The notes beneath the pieces are model-generated. The model ran no database searches. It had not been told where the DNA came from and saw only the letters and a program-made list of their open reading frames with translations. Below are positions 3,606-27,417 of a stretch of DNA of 54,336 bases, piece after piece. The position numbers and the translations under genes were made by a program. Location: the IMG/VR virus record IMGVR_UViG_3300005663_000054, positions 1 through 54,336 of that record; one strand, 5' to 3'. The stretch comes from a virus. Lineage: Duplodnaviria; Caudoviricetes. How positions within the stretch are numbered: the first letter of the stretch is position 1; the number at the start of each line of letters is the position of its first letter.

Positions 3606-5657
3606 TTAAGTCATCATTCCTGGAGCGACTCCCGGCGGAACTCCTGCCCCCTCAATTCCGGGACGCTGTTCGGCACCCATAGCCTGGGCTGCAATCTCTT
3701 CAGGCGGTCCAAGGCCTACTGGGAATACTCCAGTGAGAGTTTCAAGCATCATCTTCCACTCCTCAAACCGTCTACGCACTGGCTCCGCTGCCAACGCGAA
3801 CTCGATCTTGTTCATAAACTGCTGGACTGCCATCAACTGAATCTGTGGGTTCTGAGTATGCTCCCCAACCACCAGGGGTCCCGGAGTCTTCCCATCACGG
3901 AACAGTACGATGATCTGCCAGATAACCTTACGCCACGTCTCCCAGATTTCCTTGTTGGCACCCGGGAAGTCCAAGTTCTCCTCCAGGGCCGCAATCCAGA
4001 ACCTAGTTGGATCAACTAGCTGCATTCCAAAGAGTTCCTTCAGCTCCTCTTTCCGGACGCTCCTGTCCCGTGGGGTACGGTCTTTGACATTAACGTCCAC
4101 CTCCCACGGGTTAGGAATAGGATTGTCTGATAATTTCATGAGACCAGTCGTTGGATCAATAATGACACCCGCCACTGCGGCATCAATAGTGGCAAGCTCA
4201 ATTGTGTCCCCTGGTCCCAGTCTGTCCTTCGCAACTTGAAGCATACGGGAATATGCACCAGCAAGGGCATCAGCCATCCCGTGAGTCGGTAGGCCCAGGG
4301 CGATGTTACCCGTATTGAATAGAAATCCGAGTCCGGCAGCAGAGTCAACACGTCCACTTGTTTCTCCTTGATAGTATGGACCCTGGTTGGCCAGACGCTG
4401 CATCTGTGCAAGAGCTATCTCCGCAATCTTTGCCGGCATCGTGCCAGTATTGTGGGGTCCGAGGGTAAACGGCTGTCCACCCGGGTTCAACGGATCGGGA
4501 TCAAACTTCTCTACCTTTGGCCTTATTCCAGTACGCCATCTTTTAAGATCAATACCCGATGCCCCGGGGATAAATAGGGTTCCGAATGTATCAAGCTCTC
4601 GGATGTTCTTGAAGAGGGACTGGAACATCTTCTCACACTGGTCGTTGAAGGGAATAAGGGGATGTACGAATCCGCGAGCAAACATGCGACCAATGTCAGT
4701 ATGGCGAGCAACATGAAGAGGGCATACGGCCTTAATACCCTTCTTCTCGAAGTCTTCGTCAACGAGGATAACGTCCCCGATCTTGACGATCCATCGGGAG
4801 ACGAACTCTTGGGAGTCATCGTAGACATAAATCTCCTCCAACCTAACGTAGGCCCTACCGTCCTTCTTAGAACTACTCTTCTTATCGTCGTACTGTGTAC
4901 CCAGCAGGTCCTCTCTCCGCACCTGTCCTGCACTGCCGGGGTCATACCCATGTGGAGAGATTCGATCGTAACTCTGCTGGCCGGGAGGAGTTGCTCCCCA
5001 CGGGACTGTCTCGGCACGGAGTCTAGTCCACGGGTCCTCCTTCAGCTTAACGTCGTGAACAGCCTTCATACGATCTATGGCCCAGTCCATGGGAACCCAC
5101 CGCACACGAGCGATACCCATCAGGTTGCCAATACCATCCACATACGCCGGGAACCCTCGCAGCTCGCGGGCCGGAACCACCTCGATCATGTCAGGCATGT
5201 CGGGATCGCCGGTCTCATAGTGGGAAATTCCCACCGTCCCATACTTGAGGAAAGGTATAATCACCCTCCTCTTGAACTTCTCTCTTGGAATCCGAGCGAA
5301 GAGGGAAGCAAGGGCCGCATTGGCTATAGACGCCTTACGAAGAGAGTCCAACGATTCACCCTTCTTCTCAGCCGTAGGCGAGATGTCCATCTTCATGTAC
5401 CGACCACACTCGGTAAGGAATTGACGAACGATCTCCTCAAACCGCATGTCAATCTCACCCTTACTGTTCTCCCACGCGATTGAGACGTGCCCACTCCATC
5501 GGTCCATCACCTTGAACTTCCGGACACCGGCCAGATAAGCGTCAATGATCTTCCACGTTACAAGATGGACGTTCATTTCAGTTTCGCCCGGTTGTAACTC
5601 TCTCTCGATCGCGTCAGTCAATTCATCTTTATCTGTAGGAAGCTGAAGTCTCGCCAT
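3606..5657 (-). CDS. Portal protein
   Basis: 683 aa, downstream of TerL. Portal-like segments (FLKYGTVGI, GRMFARGFVHPLIPFNDQ, GETSGRVDSAAGL) and a Gln/Pro/Gly tail. Confidence 0.8.
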   Translation of the reverse strand: MARLQLPTDKDELTDAIERELQPGETEMNVHLVTWKIIDAYLAGVRKFKVMDRWSGHVSIAWENSKGEIDMRFEEIVRQFLTECGRYMKMDISPTAEKKGESLDSLRKASIANAALASLFARIPREKFKRRVIIPFLKYGTVGISHYETGDPDMPDMIEVVPARELRGFPAYVDGIGNLMGIARVRWVPMDWAIDRMKAVHDVKLKEDPWTRLRAETVPWGATPPGQQSYDRISPHGYDPGSAGQVRREDLLGTQYDDKKSSSKKDGRAYVRLEEIYVYDDSQEFVSRWIVKIGDVILVDEDFEKKGIKAVCPLHVARHTDIGRMFARGFVHPLIPFNDQCEKMFQSLFKNIRELDTFGTLFIPGASGIDLKRWRTGIRPKVEKFDPDPLNPGGQPFTLGPHNTGTMPAKIAEIALAQMQRLANQGPYYQGETSGRVDSAAGLGFLFNTGNIALGLPTHGMADALAGAYSRMLQVAKDRLGPGDTIELATIDAAVAGVIIDPTTGLMKLSDNPIPNPWEVDVNVKDRTPRDRSVRKEELKELFGMQLVDPTRFWIAALEENLDFPGANKEIWETWRKVIWQIIVLFRDGKTPGPLVVGEHTQNPQIQLMAVQQFMNKIEFALAAEPVRRRFEEWKMMLETLTGVFPVGLGPPEEIAAQAMGAEQRPGIEGAGVPPGVAPGMMT

Positions 5658-5661
5658 ATTT

Positions 5662-6075
5662 CTACCCTCTCACATCCATCGCGTCGCATCCCGGTGGGGG
5701 CCAAACATCTTCCGGTGTCTCTTCCTCTTCCGTCCAGGAGTTCTGATCCGAGAAGTTACTCTCTATCCTAGCCTGGGACCTATGGATAACAGCATCTTGA
5801 GACTGCCCCCGGTTTACCATAGACATCTCAATCAACCGGTCTACCAGCTTACCAGAGTCCACCTGGGAAGCAGCCAATTTATCAAGCCGGGAGAGAACCC
5901 TGTCTTCCGACTCGTTAATATGCCCTTCTAACTGTACCATTTCTTTCATTAGGTGTAGTAGTTGATCCAACTGCTTGCCAAGCTCTAACTGCTTAACGGA
6001 CAGCACTCCCAGTGCTTCCATGTGACCCTTGTTCCAGTCACTCATTTCTTGAAGACGCAGGTCTAGTTTATTCAT
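5662..6075 (-). CDS. Hypothetical coiled-coil protein
   Basis: Start MNKLDLRL at 6075 with AGGAGG RBS; between TerL and portal. Confidence 0.6.
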   Translation of the reverse strand: MNKLDLRLQEMSDWNKGHMEALGVLSVKQLELGKQLDQLLHLMKEMVQLEGHINESEDRVLSRLDKLAASQVDSGKLVDRLIEMSMVNRGQSQDAVIHRSQARIESNFSDQNSWTEEEETPEDVWPPPGCDAMDVRG

Positions 6076-6085
6076 TGCTCTCCTC

Positions 6086-7975
6086 CTATCCGTAGTTAAT
6101 CCAATCTGGTTCCGGCTCATAATCCGGCTCGTTAGTCTCTTCCCACCGACGCTGGAACATCTCTTCCAAGACATCATCCGGTATGTCGGCCGCATTGATA
6201 CCACTCATCACACCGATGCCCGACTCATAATGATAGTCCCCCTCCTTCAGCATCTGAATAGGGTTCCTGGCCATGTGGGTATCCGGCCCAGCAGGCATGG
6301 AGTGCCCAAACAGACCCTTAGCATTGACCATAGCCAGAGTATCAATCGCGTCATCAAAACGCAGCAGAGCCAAGTCCTCAGTAAAGTTCTCAATCTGGTA
6401 CCACAGATCGCTGTAAGGCCTCTCCCGGCTTCGATCCAGTGGGAGTTTTAACCTAAACTGTACGAACCTCCAGTGCAGACCCGCAATCTTGTCCGTCTTC
6501 TTGTAGCTCGTAGGAAACTTCACCTCCAGAACTCGTGGAGGTACCTCGCCCTGGCCGTATAAAGCCGGGAGATCATGGGGTAGCCTCTTGGCCAACTCCA
6601 TCTGCACTGGGTATGCTTCTACTGCAACGAGCGGAACTTGCCACTTGATAGCCATAAGATACGCACGTCGGATCACCTCCTCTGTGGGTTTCTTGTCTAG
6701 CCAAAGATCGAGAGACCACAAGGTATCCCGATAGTGTTCAGAGTTCTCTATCGCCATTACGTGGATGCACGAAAAGTCCGAAGTCTCCGAAGTCGTAGGT
6801 GCCCAGTCGATTGTAATGAATCGTCGCATATTAGAGATAGCTTCCCCAAAAGGACGGACGATGGGTCGGGGGAGAGGCACAGGTTCGTCCAGCGTACTTT
6901 CCCAACCGGCCAATTGGTGCGAGACCATCTTGGCTTGGGAATTGAGGGGATCATTAGCGTAAGTACCATCTTTATCCTCTATCCAGTAGGTGTTGAGTTC
7001 CGGATGGATACGTAGGATACGCTCTGCCTCCGTTACCGGATTATTCTCGTACTGAGCTGCATAAGCGGCAGGACCCATACGACGCTTCTGGACTACTTGC
7101 CACTCCTGTCCCATCTTCTCAGGCCACTCGTCTACCGTCTTACCATCCTTATCTTGATATGTTACAGCGTGGAATATCTTCTTCCAATCATCAATTCGTG
7201 AGTCTTCGGTAGAGTGGAGCCAATAAATGAAAGTACGCCGGGAGAGGAGGGTTCCTATGATTCGTATCTTAACATCAAAGTTATCCGCCATCGGATATAT
7301 GACATTGAAGAAGAAGGACTGGAACCCCTTGATATTCTCAGAGGGTACCAGTATGAGGCTATCATCCTTCTCCACGTCATCGAAGTATATCTCATGGGGA
7401 CGCTTACCAAGAGCAGCTCCCATTATAGGCATACCCGTAATCATAGCCCCATTCCGGAGCTTTATCTGAGAGTGGTTCCAGATTCCACCTTGAGACTTAC
7501 TAGGCTTCAACTTTCCAAAGTCATCTATGATTAGTGAGTTGTCATCTATTTGTGACATGAAGTCATCGAAGGTGGTAGTGATAAAGTCCTGCTTAGCCAG
7601 GAACATCACCGACTCCCAGTGTGGTCGTGCTACCACCTTACGCAATATGTTTTCCTTCACCAAGGTGGACTTAGCCGCTGACCTCGGAGCCGCCGTCACT
7701 GAGAGCTGCGAGTTTTCCCAATGGTAGAGCCATCGGTAGTGCATATCTGGAGAACGGTGAGTTCCATGCTTGTAGAAGGGACCACGTCCAGACGTAGCCG
7801 TCGGAAAGAGGTAGTGCTCTCGGAAGAATGCCCATGAGGCTACTTCCAAGTCCGGCCGCCCCTCTAGACGCACCGCATTCACCCTAGCCAGCTTCATACC
7901 TCCACTGTCCAACGTAGGATAATCCGCCGGTAGAGGCCAGTAGGGGTTATTTCGTTTTGAAAAGGCTACGGCCAT
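6086..7975 (-). CDS. terL: Terminase large subunit
   Basis: Walker A APRSAAKST, Walker B IYFDDVE, coupling motif IIGT, AQYENNP, RNase H-like FITIDWA..SDFS, C-terminal DDAIDTLA. Start MAVAFSK at 7975 (TAATG overlap). Confidence 0.93.
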   Translation of the reverse strand: MAVAFSKRNNPYWPLPADYPTLDSGGMKLARVNAVRLEGRPDLEVASWAFFREHYLFPTATSGRGPFYKHGTHRSPDMHYRWLYHWENSQLSVTAAPRSAAKSTLVKENILRKVVARPHWESVMFLAKQDFITTTFDDFMSQIDDNSLIIDDFGKLKPSKSQGGIWNHSQIKLRNGAMITGMPIMGAALGKRPHEIYFDDVEKDDSLILVPSENIKGFQSFFFNVIYPMADNFDVKIRIIGTLLSRRTFIYWLHSTEDSRIDDWKKIFHAVTYQDKDGKTVDEWPEKMGQEWQVVQKRRMGPAAYAAQYENNPVTEAERILRIHPELNTYWIEDKDGTYANDPLNSQAKMVSHQLAGWESTLDEPVPLPRPIVRPFGEAISNMRRFITIDWAPTTSETSDFSCIHVMAIENSEHYRDTLWSLDLWLDKKPTEEVIRRAYLMAIKWQVPLVAVEAYPVQMELAKRLPHDLPALYGQGEVPPRVLEVKFPTSYKKTDKIAGLHWRFVQFRLKLPLDRSRERPYSDLWYQIENFTEDLALLRFDDAIDTLAMVNAKGLFGHSMPAGPDTHMARNPIQMLKEGDYHYESGIGVMSGINAADIPDDVLEEMFQRRWEETNEPDYEPEPDWINYG

Positions 7976-10620: not shown

Positions 10621-10984
10621 TTTTTAATTCCAAACGTAATTCGGTTGCATGGTTGCATAGAGTTGCACCCTTTTCCTTCCCTAACTCTACTACCCTTTTA
10701 TTTTGGTCAACAGTTAGATTGCATGGTGCAACGGGTACTTCATCTATGCTACCGGTTTTTTTCATCCACATCATTTTTCGATGGCAGTTGGAGCAAAGGA
10801 CATCACACTTCTTTATCTCTTGTTCTACCCACTCCCAGCTATATCCTACGGTTAGCTTGGATACGCTCTTGAATTTGGTGATTGGATCGCGGTGGTGGAA
10901 GTCCAGGCAGCACGGCTCTGATTCCCCACAAACTTGACATCCTCTTTCACGCTTAATAGCGTTTACTCTATCCTTATTGGACAT
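10601..10984 (-). CDS. HNH endonuclease
   Basis: CQVCG..CLDFHH..EIKKCDVLCSNCHR. Confidence 0.85.
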   Translation of the reverse strand: MSNKDRVNAIKRERGCQVCGESEPCCLDFHHRDPITKFKSVSKLTVGYSWEWVEQEIKKCDVLCSNCHRKMMWMKKTGSIDEVPVAPCNLTVDQNKRVVELGKEKGATLCNHATELRLELKNASAAG

Positions 10985-10986
10985 TT

Positions 10987-12339
10987 CTAGCTCCTTGGAA
11001 CAATAATCTGAAGTCCCACGTAGTGCATCTGTTGTTCATACCGCGATCCCATACGCTTCTTTTCCATTCCAGGTATCAGTTTACGCAGGGTACGTCCGAC
11101 TTGGGACGAATTCATAGCTTTCAGATTCATGCTATCACAAAAACAGATATACTCGTTCATAAACCTGCTCGTTGTTTCAGAGCAGCTGGGGTCTGGATTA
11201 CATCTCTCGTCCACGAACTGGGACAGGGAACAGTTCTCGTGCCTTACAGTGGTCTTGGCCTGCTCAAAGACCTGGGAGGTAGTAAACTTGCCCTGTCGCT
11301 TGAGACGCTTGAGGCCCTCGATCGCCCAGTTGAAGATACCCGGTAGTTCCCAGCGTAGGGGCCAGGACGTCTTCTCAGAGTTCAGGAGGGACAGGTCTAT
11401 CTCATGGTCCTGGATTCGGACGTTCATAGGAACGACGATGAATCGGTCCCATAGAGCCTCAGAGGGGTCCTTGACTTGGGGGAAGACATTAGTGGCCACG
11501 ATGATCTTGGCAGTCATCTTGAGGGAGACTGGGTCCTTATACTTCCTGTCCACAAGGATAGTATCCCCCCCAGTAAATCTCTTGATGACGCCCTCAGCCA
11601 GTCGGTCAATCTGGTTGCAGTCCCCACAGAAGTTGACTAGTTTCCCTACCATCTCGTGAGGGGAGAAGCGGTTCCAGAAACATTCCAGGGGTACTGCACT
11701 TCTGTTCTCAGGTCCGATTACAGCTTCCAGGATGTTAGAGAGGGTGGACTTGCCGGTACGTGCTTCCCCGAACAGGATCATTAGCTTACGGAAGCTGTTG
11801 TCCTTGGTAAGGCAGTACCCGAACCACTCCTGGAGCACGTCCTGAGAGGGCTTATCCGGTAGGACCTTATCAAGGAAGACGTGGAATTGTGGGCATGTGG
11901 CTTCGGGCTCGTAGTTGTAGCTCATAACCACGGCACTGAACCAGTTGGAATCTGGGCGAAGTCGGATGGGTCGGATCGGACCAGATGCAAGAACGTCCAA
12001 ATCAATTAGACAATCTTGAAAGGCCAGGAAGTTGCTTGTGTCGTCGTAGTGGTCCACGTTCACGTAGAGGGGCATGTCTACGGTACTGGCTACAGAGACG
12101 CAGTCCAGCACTCTGATATGGTTACGGAGTTCCCTAACGGCTGCTAGTCGAGAGTCCTCCTCCTCTTCGTGCAACCAGAGAACCATCATGCCCGTAAGGT
12201 CGTCTTCGGACTGTACCCGGTAACGACCTTGGGACCAAATCCACCATTCCTGTCGATAGTACCGGAGGGTTGATGGACTCCCAAACCGGTCCTTTACAAA
12301 TCTTGCCGCTAGTCCGAGATACTTGTCGCTTTTTGACAT
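10987..12339 (-). CDS. SF3 helicase, D5/P4-type C-terminal module with no visible primase domain
   Basis: D5_N-like YEPEATCPQFHVFL..LQEWFGYCL; Walker A GEARTGKST; IKRFTGGD; IVATN..P; ALWDRF; C-terminal winged helix. Confidence 0.88.
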   Translation of the reverse strand: MSKSDKYLGLAARFVKDRFGSPSTLRYYRQEWWIWSQGRYRVQSEDDLTGMMVLWLHEEEEDSRLAAVRELRNHIRVLDCVSVASTVDMPLYVNVDHYDDTSNFLAFQDCLIDLDVLASGPIRPIRLRPDSNWFSAVVMSYNYEPEATCPQFHVFLDKVLPDKPSQDVLQEWFGYCLTKDNSFRKLMILFGEARTGKSTLSNILEAVIGPENRSAVPLECFWNRFSPHEMVGKLVNFCGDCNQIDRLAEGVIKRFTGGDTILVDRKYKDPVSLKMTAKIIVATNVFPQVKDPSEALWDRFIVVPMNVRIQDHEIDLSLLNSEKTSWPLRWELPGIFNWAIEGLKRLKRQGKFTTSQVFEQAKTTVRHENCSLSQFVDERCNPDPSCSETTSRFMNEYICFCDSMNLKAMNSSQVGRTLRKLIPGMEKKRMGSRYEQQMHYVGLQIIVPRS

Positions 12340-18352: not shown

Positions 18353-19291
18353 TTAGCCTCGATCCAGTAGATCAAGTAAACTCTTTCCAACTCTCTTCTT
18401 GGCACTATAAAGGTGGTCAAGGGACTTTACAGCTTCGTTGTACAACCTTGCCAACCTTTCGTATTCTTTCTTGATTTTATTAAACGTCATTCCTGCTCCT
18501 CCAGCTCTCCCTTTTTCCACTTGTCTGTCCTTATCATGGCCGCTATGGACTCCCGTACAGTTGGAAGGGAGTCCTCCCGGTTGGCCTCATGCAGCCTAAG
18601 ACCTCTCCCGGCTACGGAATCTCTACATATCCACCCCGAACCCGGATGCTCATGCCTGGCATGTGAGTCCAACCAGTCCAACAGTTCTGTATCAGTTAGC
18701 ATTAGTCTTTCCACGCTTCAATGGCACCCACTAGCCCCTCCCCAAACTCTTGTACCACTTTTACCTGGGCTTCGGCCTTAATTCTAGCCGTTTCTAACTT
18801 TACATATCCAACGGCCCCCACCAAAAAGAATAGCCCCCCTAGGATACTACACACAAGCCAACATACTTCCTCTCTGTCACTCATCTCTTGTCCTTTCCAA
18901 AATAACCATGTGGTAACTCACCCTTACTTCTCTTTACTTGATCCTCCGGGTCTTCCAGGTCCGGGTTATCATCATACCTACTCTCCCACCTCACAAACAG
19001 TACAAAGATGACCGCTATGACTAACAGTCCCCACCATACCATTATTTACTTCCCCTTAATCTTCTTTACTGTACCTAACTGAATTTGGTAGTAAGACCTT
19101 AGAGTCGCTACACAATCATTAAGTGCCTTATTGTATTCCCCCTGAGCCTTATCGTCCGCAGCCTCTAGTCTATCAAACCCCGCATTAGAATCCTCAACGT
19201 CCTGCCTGGTCTTTTGATAGGTCTTCAGAGTCTCCGTACAACGCTTCTGGGCCTGTTTGTAAGCCTTTTCACTACTCGCCTTAGTCTTCAT
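18353..19291 (-). CDS. Cluster of small ORFs (18353-18490, 18487-18714, 18702-18884 TM, 18881-19042 TM, 19046-19291 coiled-coil)
   Basis: Coupled ORFs at the 3' end of the Ubl operon; two have single hydrophobic helices. Confidence 0.5.
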
Positions 19292-19679
19292 CCTTACTCT
19301 CCTCTATAGACTCAAACAATCCACGCATCCAAGGCGGACACTCCTTGGACGGATACACATTCAATAGTCCTTCCTTATCCAGCACAGCCCTACCCCCGGC
19401 CATTAGGGCAAAGGCCTTACACAAGATACTGATGACTGGACACAGTGCATGTATGTCCTCTCCCATCTGCTTGGCCAATCCAGTAGCTACCCTATCTATG
19501 AAGTCATCCGTTACACCCCCCTTGATTACCACAGTAGCAGAGTAAATACTACCCTTGAGCTGCAACGTAGTAGCAATCTCGCCAAGACCAACGTCTATCT
19601 GCTGCCCACCACTTATGGCCAAACTAGCGGTCAGCACCCTAGCGTCATCCTCTGGGCATCTCTGGTAGTTAAGGTTCAT
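19281..19679 (-). CDS. Hypothetical protein in the Ubl operon
   Basis: 132 aa; overlaps the stop of the E2 candidate. Confidence 0.6.
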   Translation of the reverse strand: MNLNYQRCPEDDARVLTASLAISGGQQIDVGLGEIATTLQLKGSIYSATVVIKGGVTDDFIDRVATGLAKQMGEDIHALCPVISILCKAFALMAGGRAVLDKEGLLNVYPSKECPPWMRGLFESIEESKDED

Positions 19680-21156
19680 TATCTACCCCCTCATTACAAG
19701 CAATATAGTCGTGGGCCTCAGCACATTCTCGGCATAAATCCCCATTACATCCATTACAGTAATCATCCGGACTATCACTATTGTCCAGTGCAGAATCACA
19801 ATCAGTACAAGTAGCAACGGCAGGGGGGTCTTCCTTGGTAGGATCACTCGCAACATCTGGGACTAGTTGACCAGACTCATTACACGGTTCAGTTTCAACT
19901 GACGATATTTGATTGTCCCCAGAAAATTCCAACTTAGTTAATAGAGCAAACTTAGGGGTATTATGGTCTTGGCAAAAGAAGATAGGAATCTGTCTAGCCT
20001 CTGATAACGCAAAGTCCCCTCTACTTACTACGTCAAGCGGCATCCCTTTACTTTGTATAGCCTTTGCACACTCTACCACCTTAGCACGCCATGCTGGTGG
20101 AGGATTTACATCAAAAGGCCAATAAGATACCCTTCCCGGGGAGTCCAGATTAAATCTGTTTACTACACCTGCAAGAATCTTCCTCCCTACGCCGTTTATG
20201 TGTAAAACTCCGTTTATGCTTGTACACGGTTCTGAAGCCCGGTCGTTGAACATCCAGGTGTCCGGCAAGGCATACTGAGGAACCAGTGGTGGAATACCCA
20301 ACTCGAGACTTCGTCCTGCTGACTCAAATAATTCTTCAGGCATGACAACATTGTAATATACAGGCCACACATGAGAACTAAGCCACTTATCATCTGTGAG
20401 TCCCAAGAATGAAGTAAATAATAGGAGAGAATTCGCATCGTAAGGCTTGAAAAGATGGGGGTAAGCACAAGCTACTGCAAGGGTTGCCAGACGACGGTAT
20501 GTCGGATCACGATCTTCTAATATATTCTGGTAGCCCTCACTATCTGTATAGAGACATCTCAGTATGTCTTCAAGAAAGTCTGACACCCGAGTACCCCCTA
20601 GCAACTTCCTAAAGTCACAAGCAGCCGGAGTAGTGTTTCCAGGTTGGGCTAATGATACTATAGCTACAGTTATCTTGTCCATCCGACACAGACTCGTTAC
20701 TCCCGATTGGATATACAAATTTGACAAGGAAGATATTCCCTTGGGGAATTCTTCCTCTATTGACTTGGTTAGATGATCCGCTCGTAGTGGACAAAATCCA
20801 AACTGCACCTCCGCATCAGGAGGGGATGGACACAGTCTCAAATACGCACTGGACGGAGTACCAGAAGTGCCACGCACTAGAATAATCCAAGCACCTCCTC
20901 CTTCTTCTAGCCAACAATCCTCTACATGTGGTACTCCAATCCACATGACGCCCCTAAGGTGCTCACCCCCCTGAGGCCAAGGAAAGTGTCTCCCTAGGCC
21001 ACGTTCACTTCTTCGTGGTGCCTGAAGTTCGGCCATGCACTTATTCACAACGGTCGATATATTCGTAGGTTGTGGACGAAACTCCTTATTAGCTATAATC
21101 CATGCTTCTTTCGTAAGAGTACGAGGCCTTACATTATCTGGTTCTATCATAATCAC
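19669..21156 (-). CDS. Candidate E2-like conjugating enzyme with C-terminal Cys/His Zn finger
   Basis: LSNLYIQSGVTSLC(157) resembles the E2 (H/P)N-x-Y..G..C active site; C-terminal CTDC..CNGC..CREC..H; ATGA-coupled to the JAB gene. Confidence 0.5.
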   Translation of the reverse strand: MIMIEPDNVRPRTLTKEAWIIANKEFRPQPTNISTVVNKCMAELQAPRRSERGLGRHFPWPQGGEHLRGVMWIGVPHVEDCWLEEGGGAWIILVRGTSGTPSSAYLRLCPSPPDAEVQFGFCPLRADHLTKSIEEEFPKGISSLSNLYIQSGVTSLCRMDKITVAIVSLAQPGNTTPAACDFRKLLGGTRVSDFLEDILRCLYTDSEGYQNILEDRDPTYRRLATLAVACAYPHLFKPYDANSLLLFTSFLGLTDDKWLSSHVWPVYYNVVMPEELFESAGRSLELGIPPLVPQYALPDTWMFNDRASEPCTSINGVLHINGVGRKILAGVVNRFNLDSPGRVSYWPFDVNPPPAWRAKVVECAKAIQSKGMPLDVVSRGDFALSEARQIPIFFCQDHNTPKFALLTKLEFSGDNQISSVETEPCNESGQLVPDVASDPTKEDPPAVATCTDCDSALDNSDSPDDYCNGCNGDLCRECAEAHDYIACNEGVDNEP

Positions 21157-22301
21157 TCCCCTTTCCTAGGCCTAATCCTTAATCTGCTTCCAGTTGGGGT
21201 AGAACATACCCGGTCACACCACGCAGAGAGCTGCCCATACTGGACTGCCGTCATAATGTACCAATTGTCATTGTAGAATACGATACGCAAGTCCCCCAAA
21301 CTCTGTGGATTCACCTTAAAGGCCTCAATAATTCCCATTGTACTTTCAACAAAGTCCAGACCCTCTTCTTTACCCTCAACGGACTTCGCCTTTTTAAGCT
21401 CCTCAAAGCCCTCAATACGCTTGTGCAAGTCTGCTCTCACTTGAACTGACCTAGTCTTACGTACCACTATCCGTTTGGGAATAGTCAGCAAGTCCTCCAA
21501 GGATCGTCCACCACTAGTTACAAAGTCAACCTTAGTCCGATCAACTTCCTCTAAAGACCCCTCTTCTAGTTGAAATGTCTTACCTGCTATGGCCCCATTG
21601 ATCGTATACGAGCCATCCCGTCCAAAGATCAAATGGAGTCCAGACTTCTCTGGCTCAGCCCAGTCCTCCACGTCAGTACTACTGGGACTACAACTGTTGC
21701 TCGGATGTACATGAATAGTGCCAATCCACCTAGCCAAGTCCCCAAACTCTCCCATCTCCTCATCCGAGGCCTTCCAGGTAACCTGGCCAGCTGTCCCCTC
21801 TTGCAAGGGCACATAGTACAGCCACGTTGGAGAAGTACGGTGGAAGCCCACCAACATGACAACTTCCCGATCATACTTGGAAAAGAAGTTATCATATAGC
21901 CAAGCCAACTCTTCCATTGGAGGAAACGAATTCCAGTCAATTTTATCCACATAGACCTTTGGAGAATCCTTTCCTACCTTGGCGGGGGCTAGGCACTCAA
22001 TAAGCCCAAATCTCCTATCATAGACCTGCTTGTCTTCCCCAACTACAAGTGACGTGGTCTTCAGGTCAATCTTTACAAGGTCATCAAGTTTGAGCATGTC
22101 CTGCATTCCGCCTAGTGAGGAGAGACCCCATCTAGTTGGTACCCAGTCTTCGATCTCATCCAATAATCCAGCCCCAAACGGATCGTGATCCTCTAGCCAA
22201 TCCTGATACCGACTATCCTCATTCTCCTCTACCGCCTCCCCATACTCGTCCAAGTCCATCTGACCCACTCGATTACCTTGATACCGCACAGGCAGAGTCA
22301 T
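21153..22301 (-). CDS. JAB/MPN+ (JAMM) metalloprotease
   Basis: REVVMLV ... VPLQ ... IGTIHVHP..SPSSTD..D gives the E..HxH.....S..D JAMM motif, then GLHLIFG. Start at 22301 by ATGA overlap. Confidence 0.88.
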   Translation of the reverse strand: MTLPVRYQGNRVGQMDLDEYGEAVEENEDSRYQDWLEDHDPFGAGLLDEIEDWVPTRWGLSSLGGMQDMLKLDDLVKIDLKTTSLVVGEDKQVYDRRFGLIECLAPAKVGKDSPKVYVDKIDWNSFPPMEELAWLYDNFFSKYDREVVMLVGFHRTSPTWLYYVPLQEGTAGQVTWKASDEEMGEFGDLARWIGTIHVHPSNSCSPSSTDVEDWAEPEKSGLHLIFGRDGSYTINGAIAGKTFQLEEGSLEEVDRTKVDFVTSGGRSLEDLLTIPKRIVVRKTRSVQVRADLHKRIEGFEELKKAKSVEGKEEGLDFVESTMGIIEAFKVNPQSLGDLRIVFYNDNWYIMTAVQYGQLSAWCDRVCSTPTGSRLRIRPRKGE

Positions 22302-22996
22302 GTCATTACCGCCTTTATAAGAGGAACATACGTATGCCACACGCTAGTAGTTCTTGGGCCTGTTTCCCACCAGAACTCTTTAGCACTTCCAATAAGTCCG
22401 CCCTCAAGTAGGCCAGCCACGTCCTCGATGCACATACCCACACACACGCCAGTCAAGGCATTGGCTCGAACATCCTGTGGATTACACCGATGACCAGTAT
22501 CATCCTCTTCTCCCACATCCTCATGGTACTTACGCCAATCCAGTATGGCTTTTCCATCCTGCCATATACCCGAGTAGCACTGGCCATTAAGTCTTTCACA
22601 TCCCGATACCACCATAATCCCAGGACTAACTCTCCCGGCCAACCACTCTGCCACCTGCAATCGAGTATCATCATTATCCACGTTCACAATGGCCAGTACA
22701 GGCTTACCCGATGTCTCCGTCCCTAGGAAAGGATCACTCGGCGAGAATCGTGCCATTATTTCAAGACCCTCTTCCTCTCCCAGTATTTCTGCTGCTATAC
22801 TGACCTTGGTCACTCCTGGAGCACAAAGGGGCCACTGACGCTCTTTGTTATCCGGGGCTAGACTATCTGGATCAATGAAGATAGTCGAATGCTTCCCCCC
22901 ATATCTCCTCCTCAGAACAGCCAGGTAAGGACTCGCCGCATAGAATGTCCCACCACACCCCACAAACACCCATATATAGTCATTAAGAGTCGTCAT
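22298..22996 (-). CDS. ThiF/E1-like adenylyltransferase
   Basis: VGCGGT, IDPD..DNxxRQ, K, VNVDN..TR, SG..NGQ, and C171 in HRCNPQ...N. Confidence 0.88.
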   Translation of the reverse strand: MTTLNDYIWVFVGCGGTFYAASPYLAVLRRRYGGKHSTIFIDPDSLAPDNKERQWPLCAPGVTKVSIAAEILGEEEGLEIMARFSPSDPFLGTETSGKPVLAIVNVDNDDTRLQVAEWLAGRVSPGIMVVSGCERLNGQCYSGIWQDGKAILDWRKYHEDVGEEDDTGHRCNPQDVRANALTGVCVGMCIEDVAGLLEGGLIGSAKEFWWETGPRTTSVWHTYVPLIKAVMT

Positions 22997-23189
22997 TACC
23001 TGCCTCCCTCCACCCCCCGTAACCGAACTCGTCTATGTCTTCAACGAATCCCTCATACTCCTCCGGCTCATGCACATCGACTACCGCCCCATAGCCATCC
23101 ATGTAATCCTCATCACTCGCTTCAAGATTACTAACACGCCTCTCCAGCTCCTCTACCCTCTCTAGGAGAGCAGCAAACTTTCTTGTCAT
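22983..23189 (-). CDS. Small coiled-coil/acidic protein between Ubl and E1
   Basis: 68 aa; LLERVEELERRVSNLE then a D/E/Y-rich tail. Confidence 0.6.
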   Translation of the reverse strand: MTRKFAALLERVEELERRVSNLEASDEDYMDGYGAVVDVHEPEEYEGFVEDIDEFGYGGWREAGNDDS

Positions 23190-23214
23190 CGCCCTTTCCT
23201 TTCAAAAGCCGGGA

Positions 23215-23264
23215 GAAACAAACCATGAACAGGGGAAGGTCCGACCCTTTCCCCTGTTCATGGT
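23215..23264 (-). terminator. Rho-independent terminator/attenuator after the Ubl gene
   Basis: ACCATGAACAGGGGAAAGG-GTCGGA-CCTTCCCCTGTTCATGGT followed by TTGTTTCT. Confidence 0.7.
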
Positions 23265-23321
23265 CCATCTGCTCTCTCCTAGCGGCTGTCTTGGTCCCCT
23301 ATGCAGCCAGTCTTAGACTTC

Positions 23322-23558
23322 CTACCCCTGCTTGCCAGACCTCGGGATCTGGGAAACCTGGTCCCCATTCTGGAGAGGCGTATTGGGAGTAGCGGGACTC
23401 CCATTGACCCGCGTGGTGCAGGCCTTAATGCCCCTCAGATGTCCATCCTCAATCAATGCCTGGACAGTGCTATTCTCCGGCACCTGGGTATCCACAACCT
23501 CTCCACCCCTCCCGATCCTCACGTTGATCATACCATCGAGAACGTCCTCATCGTACAT
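23322..23558 (-). CDS. Ubiquitin-like (ThiS/MoaD beta-grasp) protein ending in Gly
   Basis: INVRI..V..NSTVQALI..RVNG..TPLQNGDQV..GKQG*; GGAGG RBS. Confidence 0.88.
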   Translation of the reverse strand: MYDEDVLDGMINVRIGRGGEVVDTQVPENSTVQALIEDGHLRGIKACTTRVNGSPATPNTPLQNGDQVSQIPRSGKQG

Positions 23559-23835
23559 CTAATCCTCCCGTTTCTGCCACCGTGTGGCCATGTTCCCCTA
23601 GTCTAATCATTGTCTTTATGTCCCTGACTAGGGAACCTGGAAATTCCATGTAGACCAAGTAGACCACGCTTTGGTGCCAGAAAGCAACGTGCTGTCGACC
23701 GACACAAAGGGTGTTTCCATCCGTATACACTGAACCATCCAGGCTTGCTCTGGAGCGTCGTGCGAGGAACCATTCCACCGCTTTTCTTCGACTCTCCTCC
23801 GTCTCTCTCGCTCGTGCCATAGAATGTCCCTCCAT
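23548..23835 (-). CDS. Hypothetical protein, first gene of the Ubl operon
   Basis: 95 aa (alternative start 23820); SVYTDGNTL..G..VAFW. Confidence 0.6.
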   Translation of the reverse strand: MEGHSMARARETEESRRKAVEWFLARRSRASLDGSVYTDGNTLCVGRQHVAFWHQSVVYLVYMEFPGSLVRDIKTMIRLGEHGHTVAETGGLDVR

Positions 23836-23923
23836 GAACTATTCTCATGGCTGCCTCCTAAGAACCAAGACTGCCTTACGTCCTTCCCCAGGCCCAGTGC
23901 ATGAGGCGTTCAGCGGTCGCTCG

Positions 23924-23973
23924 ATTCTATGCCGCCGGATCGCCCGGAAGCAACCCTTTTTATTTTATTTTTT
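23924..23973 (-). promoter_or_regulatory. Sigma70-type promoter with UP-like A-tract driving the Ubl operon
   Basis: A-tract (23957-23973), then TTGCTT-18-TAGAAT. Confidence 0.7.
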
Positions 23974-24053
23974 GCATCCGATAACCCCCCATCGGTGGAG
24001 GAGGTGTGAATAGATATGGATTGGTAGTAGTCTACAGCGCGGGCAAGCGGTAA

Positions 24054-25007: not shown

Positions 25008-25715
25008 TTAGGCGGATAGTTTCCGACTTATGGCCAATGACCTCACGTGAAGATCCAGAGGATTCGTACTGCCTTCTTGGATACCCACCACCGGCAGGAG
25101 GTCCACGTCGGCCGCATGGGCCAAGGAAGTATGTACCAGATTACCATTGATGTAGTACCGGCATCGCCGATTAGCATCAAACTCCACCTGGAAGAGATAG
25201 ACCGAGGATGCAACTACTGCAACTCCGGTATCTGCTGTGGTATCCGTAGAACTAATGCTGTTGTTGACCTGCCAGTTGGTGTCGGTTCCATTAAGCCACC
25301 TGAACACGGCTTGGTCGGCCTTATCCCCAACAACGAAGGGAGACGAAAGGCCTAGCGACATGCCGATCATAATCACGCCCGTGACTTCCAGGACATCCGT
25401 CCGGACAAGAGCCTCAAACTTCACCTCGTCCTTCGTACTCCACGTAATCCCCCGCCACAGGCTTCTATTGTCCGCGTCGGCTGCTGGCTCCATAATTACC
25501 TGGTCCGCAGCCGCACTCTGAGTGGTAAATTTCAGACCATGATCGGGATCATAGGCACAGTTGCCATCAACCACGTTTGTACCACTAATCTCAAAGTCTT
25601 TGTCTTCCAGCAAAATGGCAGTGGCGTCCACGCCGACCAATCCATGTTCCCCGGCCCGCCAGATCAGTTGAATCCTGTCGGGATCACCTAGTACACTCGT
25701 AACGATCTGACTCAT
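25008..25715 (-). CDS. Putative virion protein with ConA/LamG-like beta-sandwich
   Basis: DTGVAV...Y.FQVEFD....RYYINGNLVHT pattern. Confidence 0.6.
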   Translation of the reverse strand: MSQIVTSVLGDPDRIQLIWRAGEHGLVGVDATAILLEDKDFEISGTNVVDGNCAYDPDHGLKFTTQSAAADQVIMEPAADADNRSLWRGITWSTKDEVKFEALVRTDVLEVTGVIMIGMSLGLSSPFVVGDKADQAVFRWLNGTDTNWQVNNSISSTDTTADTGVAVVASSVYLFQVEFDANRRCRYYINGNLVHTSLAHAADVDLLPVVGIQEGSTNPLDLHVRSLAISRKLSA

Positions 25716-25727
25716 CTTCGTTGCTCC

Positions 25728-26285
25728 TTAGCTTACTCTCAGTCCCTGTACTTCAACAAGAAACTTTACAGTTGGATTGTTCCCAATACTATCCGCTTTT
25801 GATTCAAACTTGCACCGTAGGCCTTCATTCTCTGAGACCGTCGCGGGCACCTGATTTAGAACTTCCAGTTCCCGAACGTCACCCGACTCCATATCACCTA
25901 CATGTGACCACGGCAGGATGTCCGTCCACGCACCACTACCATCCCCATCTTCAACAACAACCCGGATACTTCCGAATCCGGTCTTGAAATCTCTTGACAG
26001 ACTGGAGATACATCGTACTTTTATCCCCAACACCCTAAACTTGAATGGGGCATCAGTTGACATTGGCGTGGTCGTTGTAGTCTGTACCGCAGCAGTCGTA
26101 CTGTGGGTAAAGTAGAACAAGATTGAAAAGGGCACTCCAAATGCCACATTTCCATCGGCCAAAGTAAGAGCATCAGGCCCCATACTGTGCAGCATACTCT
26201 CAGGGTCCTGCGTGACTACGCCAAGTACCCCATCAGCCGTCAGATTTACCTGTGCTCCGGTTCTCCCGGTTTCATTTAGACTCAT
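25728..26285 (-). CDS. Putative capsid decoration protein (paralogue of 26833..27417)
   Basis: Shares FGVPF, APFKFRV and NEGL..LRV motifs. Confidence 0.55.
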   Translation of the reverse strand: MSLNETGRTGAQVNLTADGVLGVVTQDPESMLHSMGPDALTLADGNVAFGVPFSILFYFTHSTTAAVQTTTTTPMSTDAPFKFRVLGIKVRCISSLSRDFKTGFGSIRVVVEDGDGSGAWTDILPWSHVGDMESGDVRELEVLNQVPATVSENEGLRCKFESKADSIGNNPTVKFLVEVQGLRVS

Positions 26286-26833
26286 TACAGGTTCTCCGTT
26301 ACAGTGCGAGGCACCACTACGTACTCACACATAACCAGGAACTTACCTCCACCGTCCCCCGCTGTTCCTGACTCGTTCCCCGCCGTAGTGAGGGCCACTT
26401 CAATCCCGAAACCCGCCGGAACATGGTAGAGCGTCCGGTCCTCGGTATTTGCTCGGTTATCCCAGTTGATAAGAATATCCGCATCTACTGCGTGCCACTC
26501 TCCCACTGTCGCGTTGTCAGTTGAAGTGATCACGGCAAGAGACGCAGGAGACGAGCCCTTGGTCCTGACAGTAATAACTGCCGCCGTATTCGCGTGGGTA
26601 ACCGCTTGGGTCGTAAAGGTCCCCAGACTCAGAATGATAATGCCGGTTCCGGCCGTATCATCCTCATGTACTAGAGTGTGATACTTGTCCAGAATCTGGT
26701 TATCATTCTCATCCCCGTCAATCTCAAGCATAGCGATCTTGACCGGTACAGACATGCCCCGATTGGGAACCTTGTCCTGGGAATGAGTACGAGCCTGCAA
26801 CGAGCTATGAATAGTAAAGTCAGTACCTGCCAT
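26285..26833 (-). CDS. Putative capsid decoration/jelly-roll protein
   Basis: Start MAGTDF (TAATG overlap); beta-rich; TAG...KFLVMCEY. Confidence 0.55.
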   Translation of the reverse strand: MAGTDFTIHSSLQARTHSQDKVPNRGMSVPVKIAMLEIDGDENDNQILDKYHTLVHEDDTAGTGIIILSLGTFTTQAVTHANTAAVITVRTKGSSPASLAVITSTDNATVGEWHAVDADILINWDNRANTEDRTLYHVPAGFGIEVALTTAGNESGTAGDGGGKFLVMCEYVVVPRTVTENL

Positions 26834-27417
26834 TACACCACCACCCTCATGCACATGAAGTAGATTGTAAAGTCCGCCTGCTCAGTAGAACCCAGCAAGA
26901 CCGAGAGCTGAAGACCCTCGTCCTCATCTACCAGGTCGTAGGGGGCAATGAGCTTACCGGCCCCATCAGCCGAGAATCCCACATCATTCTGGTCTAGGTT
27001 CAAGTCATACGCCTCGCTCATAGCGTTCGCAGCCGAGGCCGAATCAAGGTGGTTAATCGTCAGAGTTCCTTCCGGAGCTGTGGCCGACGCACCAGCCGTG
27101 ACCCACCACTTGATTACCCTGAACAGGAAGGGTGAAGGGCCGTTTGGCGTCCCAGCCGTACCTGCCGGATCGAGCACGTCTAGAGTAGACGTTCGACCCC
27201 CAGTCAGATCATCCATTACGACCGTAAATGCCATAATAAACGGTTGACCATACTGGGTTGATACAATCGACTCAGCATCATCAGCAGCAATGGCCGTACT
27301 CTGAAGGGTTACGCCACTCTGTACCATTCCCTCGGGGTTTTGCAAGAGCAGGCCGGTTACCGCATCAATCGACTCGGTTACGTTACGTCCCGTTGCTCCA
27401 CTTTCTTGTAGTCCCAT
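26833..27417 (-). CDS. Putative capsid decoration protein
   Basis: YGQPF, SPFLFRV and DEGL..MRV motifs. Confidence 0.55.
   Translation of the reverse strand: MGLQESGATGRNVTESIDAVTGLLLQNPEGMVQSGVTLQSTAIAADDAESIVSTQYGQPFIMAFTVVMDDLTGGRTSTLDVLDPAGTAGTPNGPSPFLFRVIKWWVTAGASATAPEGTLTINHLDSASAANAMSEAYDLNLDQNDVGFSADGAGKLIAPYDLVDEDEGLQLSVLLGSTEQADFTIYFMCMRVVV

Follow-up and report, generated by a model that had tools for sequence, protein, structure and literature searches.

The characterised prokaryotic systems that conjugate ubiquitin-like proteins (Ubls), namely Bil, type II CBASS and Bub, are anti-phage defences of the host. An E2-less archaeal type is represented by SAMP/UbaA/HvJAMM1, and Thermus TtuB/TtuC with its JAMM peptidase and eukaryotic Urm1/Uba4 are counted with it. 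Here we analysed a virus record of IMG/VR (IMGVR_UViG_3300005663_000054; 54,336 bp, the whole record, estimated to be complete, and referred to as the window), which encodes on its minus strand a Ubl of 78 amino acids (aa), an E1 of 232 aa and a JAB/JAMM metalloprotease of 382 aa. A first, sequence-only reading of this DNA had proposed a phage-borne set of Ubl, E1 and JAMM protease, and this core is backed by profile, motif and fold evidence. Its E2 call has to be withdrawn, and the genes do not form a Ubl-E1-E2-JAB set of the Bil, PRTRC or Cap2 type, because the proposed E2 cysteine, C157 of a 495-aa protein termed X495, is not conserved, neither a UBC fold nor an E2 family was found, and the E1 is a single domain of 232 aa. 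We conclude that the Ubl, the E1 and the JAB are real and conserved, and that the module is a new, phage-borne form of prokaryotic Ubl system with a minimal E1 and with an unrecognised Cys311 protein at the position expected for an E2.

The recognisable core of the module is most like the E2-less archaeal type. In contrast to the SAMP systems, it is encoded by a phage, its Ubl has one terminal Gly (KQG) where Gly-Gly would be usual, its E1 carries neither CxxC zinc motifs nor a rhodanese domain, and it is always linked to p95, X495 (with Cys311 and a zinc finger) and p132. For Bil (BilABCD, "ISG15-like"), sections of the primary literature describe an E1 made of tandem IAD-AAD domains with a mobile CYS domain and an E2, BilB, with a UBC fold and a CEHH motif (PMC10557695; PMC11601596), whereas the E1 of the module consists of one domain (216-260 aa across its family) and a UBC-fold E2 was not found; furthermore, Bil defends the host against phages, while an entire group of phages retains the module. 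A resemblance to type II CBASS exists at the level of the JAB, whose nearest Foldseek match is Cap3. Unlike Cap2/Cap3 systems, however, the open reading frames (ORFs) of the module include neither a CD-NTase nor an E1-E2 fusion, and a free Ubl takes the place of the CD-NTase C-terminus. PADLOC returned JAB-level matches only (one of seven module proteins). As for PRTRC cassettes, the NCBIfam PRTRC models matched none of eight module proteins at E ≤ 1. Bub differs as well, with the fusions and the DUF6527 protein described for it in part of PMC11601596.

Two viral cases are also on record. The Ubl TAPI and the JAB peptidase TAPK of phages lambda and T1, according to the relevant part of Iyer et al. 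2006 (PMC1779556), likewise combine a phage Ubl with a conserved C-terminal Gly and an adjoining JAB peptidase, but these genes belong to a tail gene cluster without an E1, whereas the module has an E1 and lies beside replication genes. The Nidhogg viruses of Asgard archaea, which are also uncultured marine-sediment viruses with ThiF/E1-like proteins, are proposed in part of a preprint to engage Ubl systems by using the Ubl and E2 of the host (bioRxiv 10.1101/2021.07.29.454249), whereas the virus studied here brings its own Ubl and JAB. Searches of full-text articles found no account of the module; phage-borne operons may be listed in supplementary material, e.g. in Table S1 of PMC11601596 or in data files of the Asgard-virus preprint.

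The Ubl gene (23322-23558, minus strand) encodes a ThiS/MoaD/SAMP2-type beta-grasp protein ending in Gly78, with the C-terminus SGKQG that had been noted in the first reading. The protein scored 23.3 bits against Pfam ThiS (cut-off 22.5), and within its family of eight, i.e. the window copy and seven homologues from related loci, ThiS was matched by seven members at E ≤ 0.1 and the SAMP2 family by two. A profile of the family found SAMP2 as its best match in the PDB (E 0.0067), followed by PF1061 and MoaD. Based on the profile match and the C-terminal Gly, the Ubl can be placed by its sequence among the ThiS/MoaD/SAMP beta-grasp proteins. Gly78 is invariant; it is terminal in 6/8 members and followed by one residue in 2/8, and BilA is likewise described, in part of PMC10557695, as having an extra C-terminal residue before trimming by its peptidase. 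All eight members end in K/Q-Q/L-G apart from that extra residue, so that the Gly-Gly typical of ThiS, MoaD and SAMP is absent.

Searched alone, the E1 (22298-22996, minus strand), a ThiF/MoeB-type adenylation domain, had no match in Pfam, PADLOC, NCBIfam or the PDB, and neither had a single relative (P0035) in the PDB. A profile built on its family, which comprises 35 exclusively metagenomic relatives with lengths of 216-260 aa, matched UBA5 (5e-5), MoeB (1.3e-4) and MccB (2e-3) in the PDB, and Pfam ThiF was matched by 18/34 family members. The nucleotide-binding motifs and Cys171 that had been pointed out from the sequence proved to be conserved throughout: the GCGGT motif with G13, G15 and G16, as well as D42, R53, Q54, K64, D107, C133 and C171, are each present in 34/34 aligned sequences, and R112 in 33/34. 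We take these residues to be the nucleotide, phosphate and Mg ligands known from ThiF and MoeB, with a Rossmann GxGxxG motif, an Asp for the ribose, Arg/Gln and Lys for the phosphates and an Asp that binds Mg. C171 presumably sits at the crossover-loop cysteine region of MoeB/ThiF, to judge from the end of the MoeB match at profile position 153 and from the general layout of these enzymes. The protein has no CxxC zinc pairs, no second domain and no rhodanese domain, and a search for longer, fused forms found none, which is weak evidence. A pattern scan for the E1 family across 185,579 species genomes did not reveal a relative. Judged by sequence, the 232-aa protein is a member of the ThiF/MoeB/E1 adenylation superfamily.

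The JAB gene (21153-22301, minus strand) lies in an ORF that reaches 22340; a start at the ATG of 22301, giving 382 aa, is preferred by gene callers and is also suggested by its ATGA overlap with the stop of the E1 gene. The JAMM motif described as intact in the first reading is indeed complete, with E146, H197, H199, S207 and D210 (382-aa numbering) each found in 29/29 sequences from a family with 33 relatives. A disordered N-terminus is followed by a core at about residues 97-270 and a small C-terminal beta-beta-alpha-beta domain. The structural model has a predicted local distance difference test (pLDDT) value of 73, above 90 in the core, and matched Cap3 and AMSH/Sst2 in Foldseek (4e-5 to 1e-4), accompanied by weak JAB/Cap3 matches in NCBIfam and PADLOC. 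The protein is thus a JAMM/MPN+ peptidase, with an MPN fold and the motif E...HxH-x7-S-xx-D.

The module could serve counter-defence only, i.e. the JAB would strip host Ubl marks, such as the Bil Ubl on phage tails or, like Cap3, the Cap2-primed CD-NTase, and the Ubl and E1 would act as decoys or competitors. A decoy, however, leaves the conservation of the E1 adenylation site (34/34) and the invariant terminal Gly of the Ubl unexplained, and we consider such a purely counter-defensive use distinctly improbable.

Two further observations concern the JAB. The last strand of its C-terminal domain (21153-21350, about 65 residues) resembles a ubiquitin tail (..LRI..K/RGG plus 1-3 residues); GG lies within the last eight residues in 20/29 family members (relatives P0065-P0093), and the window copy ends in RKGE. 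The domain could represent an additional Ubl-like handle that is fused to the JAB. In a different phage, the 84.5-kb viral contig L020, a 416-aa JAB protein with 28% identity is directly followed by a 254-aa ORF opening with a GAGGIGG nucleotide-binding motif (5803-7792), which represents a separate pair of JAB and E1-like genes without the other module genes.

The block order is p95, Ubl, hairpin, coiled-coil ORF, E1, JAB, X495 and p132. We compared 12 related metagenomic or viral loci, excluding from each count those that end too early, and the synteny survey suggested in the first reading showed that the gene order is kept: the JAB follows the E1 in 10/10 loci, the Ubl lies upstream of the E1 in 9/9, X495 follows the JAB in 6/6, p132 follows X495 in 5/6, and p95 precedes the Ubl in 8/9 loci with upstream DNA. 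Between the window (G000) and a complete 55-kb relative (G001), the terminase is 88%, a portal-sized protein 86% and the polymerase 81% identical, and p95 and p132 reach 79% and 77%, while the values are 67% for the Ubl, 58% for the E1, 55% for the JAB and 41% for X495. From the kept synteny and these identities we conclude that the module is fixed in the phage group and that its enzymes, above all X495, diverge fast. Divergence beyond that of the terminase and the portal-sized protein fits a module that interacts with the host. A reduced set of Ubl, E1, JAB and X431 occurs on a 522-kb metagenome contig (L009; positions 49-1545, 4057-4797 and 10767-11585 for this set and its surroundings), without zinc finger, p95 or p132, and is flanked by genes for a PARP/WGR protein, a histidine phosphatase and a PP2C phosphatase.

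The E2 question centres on X495 (19669-21156, minus strand), a protein of unrecognised fold with an invariant Cys311 and a C-terminal zinc finger. The window copy does contain the N-x-Y..G..C157 pattern that had been taken as E2-like, and the position of X495 beside the E1 and the JAB is conserved, as would be expected if the module were a canonical Ubl-E1-E2-JAB cascade with X495 as a UBC-fold E2 using C157. However, among its relatives (25 in 1.84 billion representatives) only 2/22 sequences covering this column have a Cys, and 11 have a Phe. Neither a UBC fold within 19669-21156 nor one of the anticipated Prok-E2 families was detected, and the Pfam E2 families did not match any of 23 X495 relatives. 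We regard a canonical cascade of this kind as extremely improbable.

The sole invariant Cys of X495 is C311 (23/23), located in W-x-F303-N304-x6-C311-x-G313, with P289-P290...P293 before it and K326, D338 and W356 after it; P290 is conserved in 21/23, F303, N304 and K326 in 22/23 each, and P293 and W356 in 23/23 sequences, and no His reaches 70% conservation. This pattern, i.e. an invariant C311 with N304 and K326 and without a conserved His, fits a thioester carrier and not a Cys-His hydrolase. AlphaFold modelled X495 with confidence (pLDDT 86, predicted template modelling score (pTM) 0.80), and the model gave 0 matches at E ≤ 1e-3 in Foldseek searches of the PDB and BFVD. A second structural look returned no match and no E2, with the tools' own warning that one domain may escape detection in a model of 495 residues; the ESM Atlas, whose own model is poor (pTM 0.26), offered nothing usable. 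Sequence and profile searches of the PDB recovered the zinc finger only, a binuclear one like those of FYVE, RING and B-box domains (E 7e-4), which occupies the C-terminal 45 residues (about 446-490) and is missing in several relatives. A complex prediction for E1, Ubl and X495(1-435) scored 0.19 against a mark of 0.32 and is evidence neither way.

The PP...FN...C spacing is presumably like that of the UBC signature PP...HPN...C. X495 might contain a very divergent, insertion-laden E2-like core around P289-P290...F303-N304...C311, fused to a zinc finger, and the module would then run an E1-E2 cascade after all. Such a core would agree with the conservation of P290, P293, F303, N304, C311 and W356 in 21-23 of 23 sequences, with the modelled strand 292-296 before the Cys loop and helices after it, and with a zinc finger like those of RING/B-box domains. 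Yet the resemblance to the UBC motif is putative, the model has a two-strand element ahead of the Cys loop and helices behind it where a UBC fold would have a four-stranded meander before the loop, and no E2 appears among structural matches, with the same reservation about single domains; we would give this core only a slight chance. Somewhat better, although still doubtful in our view, are the prospects of a new, non-UBC class of Ubl transfer, in which X495 would be an "E2/E3 in one", with Cys311 as thioester carrier next to a RING/B-box-like zinc finger, fed by the minimal E1, and the tagging of proteins of the host or the phage would be a built-in element of the infection programme in a whole group of sediment phages.

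A Ubl of the ThiS/MoaD type and an E1 of the MoeB/ThiF type are also what a sulfur carrier would require: the E1 would adenylate the Ubl to yield a thiocarboxylate that donates sulfur, e.g. for thiolation of tRNA, DNA or a cofactor, and the JAB would only mature the Ubl. SAMPs, TtuB and Urm1, described as dual-function proteins in part of PMC9574740, speak for this option. The first reading had considered sulfur transfer unlikely since pathway genes are lacking nearby, and our searches extend this to the whole 54-kb genome, in which 0/4 partner families (MoaE, ThiG, PP-loop ATP_bind_3 and rhodanese) were found, while the control searches for these families gave a match in 12-14 of 14 genomes. 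The absence of the partner families makes sulfur transfer less likely. Moreover, the Ubl has no need of maturation in 6/8 members, yet the JAB active site is intact in 29/29; the C-terminus is KQG and not GG; and a protein with an invariant Cys and a zinc finger is always attached (6/6). Taken together, we rate a sulfur carrier as unlikely.

We lean towards the interpretation that the module is a genuine phage-encoded system for Ubl activation, conjugation and deconjugation, hence reversible, and differs from a canonical E1-E2 cascade; either it is E2-less, or the Cys311 protein of unrecognised fold acts as the E2. Starting from the identified Ubl, E1 and JAB and from their conserved synteny, the following course may be envisaged. 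The Ubl, of the ThiS/SAMP type, would be made with a free C-terminal Gly or trimmed to it. The E1 would adenylate this Gly, as suggested by its complete and invariant set of ATP and Mg residues, and would probably then form a thioester on the invariant C171. The activated Ubl could reach its putative targets without an intermediate, in the manner of the E2-less systems SAMP/UbaA, TtuB/TtuC and Urm1, or via Cys311 of X495, in which case the fast-evolving surface and the RING/B-box-like zinc finger would supply the choice of target. The JAMM protease would trim the one-residue tail of the Ubl in some relatives and reverse the conjugates. A role in this course may also fall to p95 and p132.

Several points weigh against this interpretation. 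Because there is no recognisable E2, the case for conjugation depends on the parallel with E2-less systems or on the predicted role of X495. In a six-frame search of the 54-kb genome, UQ_con and Prok-E2_A to Prok-E2_E gave 0/6 families at E ≤ 1, and structural comparisons returned no UBC match for X495, which might just as well serve as a substrate or scaffold. In the classical case, Ubls of the ThiS/MoaD type that are paired with a minimal, MoeB-like E1 carry sulfur, the sulfur partners could be supplied by the host, and the single Gly of the Ubl tail differs from the Gly-Gly in which SAMPs, ThiS and MoaD end.

The minus-strand ORFs listed in the first reading are all present, and neighbouring genes overlap by 4-14 nt, the sole exception being a gap of 132 nt between the Ubl gene and the 68-aa ORF. 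The tight coupling proposed for the operon thus applies to p95/Ubl and from the 68-aa ORF downstream, and is interrupted at this gap, which holds a 43-nt palindrome. The palindrome, with about 20 pairs in the predicted fold, is followed by UUUGUUUCU (together 23210-23264, minus strand); the surrounding 131-nt stretch (23195-23325), which includes other stems, folds at -59 kcal/mol (z -5.4), and in 6/10 loci examined the Ubl stop is followed by a comparably strong hairpin at a distance of no more than 140 nt. The window hairpin is not flagged by a simple terminator scan. Possible functions are those of a terminator- or attenuator-like element or of a 3' stabiliser, and the hairpin could allow more of the tag than of the enzymes to be produced. 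The 11-mer AGCCGGGAGAG has 38 occurrences genome-wide with up to one mismatch, compared to 1.2 expected; one copy (23207-23217) abuts the hairpin, and locus L004 has an exact copy at the same place.

Upstream of the block, the A-tract of the promoter proposed in the first reading is present (23957-23973). The promoter itself did not emerge from a consensus scan demanding 4/6 matches in each hexamer, although TTGCTT-18-TAGAAT can be read from the sequence after the A-tract, so that 23924-23973 (minus strand) is at most a possible promoter with an UP-like element. The p95 gene (23548-23820, minus strand) lies in an ORF of 23548-23835, probably starts at 23820 with MARARE..., which gives 90 aa, and shares 11 nt with the start of the Ubl gene; p95 had no match in Pfam, PHROG or the PDB, profile search of the PDB included, and is a conserved small protein of unrecognised fold. 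The 68-aa coiled-coil, acidic ORF (22983-23189, minus strand) runs 14 nt into the E1 gene and varies among relatives; in L003, L004 and L008, conservation is confined to the N-terminal ~25-58 residues. Finally, p132 (132 aa; 19281-19679, minus strand) overlaps the X495 stop by 11 nt, has invariant C8, H77 and C80, and gave no match in Pfam, the PDB (profile included) or the Atlas.

The module is located between the replication genes and a series of small ORFs in a genome that encodes a large terminase, primase/helicase, DNA polymerase and exonuclease; a tyrosine integrase was not found, which bears out the earlier impression that no integrase is recognisable. Metagenome runs from marine sediment contain the window DNA, although these runs may be its own source; no RNA run is listed as containing the stretch. 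The bearers of the module form a group of uncultured marine-sediment phages. GenBank phages showed no DNA match to window positions 19000-24000 and no tblastn match to the E1, and the terminase shares no more than 23.5% identity with Leptospira phages in an alignment that covers 35% of its length; by sequence, the phage is far from any deposited one. Upstream of the module, 25008-27417 (minus strand) encodes four tandem beta-rich proteins, one with an SO2946-like C-terminal domain, which rank with the most divergent proteins in the comparison of G000 with G001 (34-41%, one 69%). L018 and L019 carry three tandem homologues of p235.

The phage carries a tag, its activator and its eraser as a conserved and fast-evolving part of the genome, which would put Ubl tagging on the side of the phage, as is the case in eukaryotic viruses. 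If X495 does carry the tag, what is known of E2/E3-like enzymes would be widened with respect to both their chemistry and their evolution; if it does not, the module would be a compact E2-less system that could be reconstituted from three small proteins.

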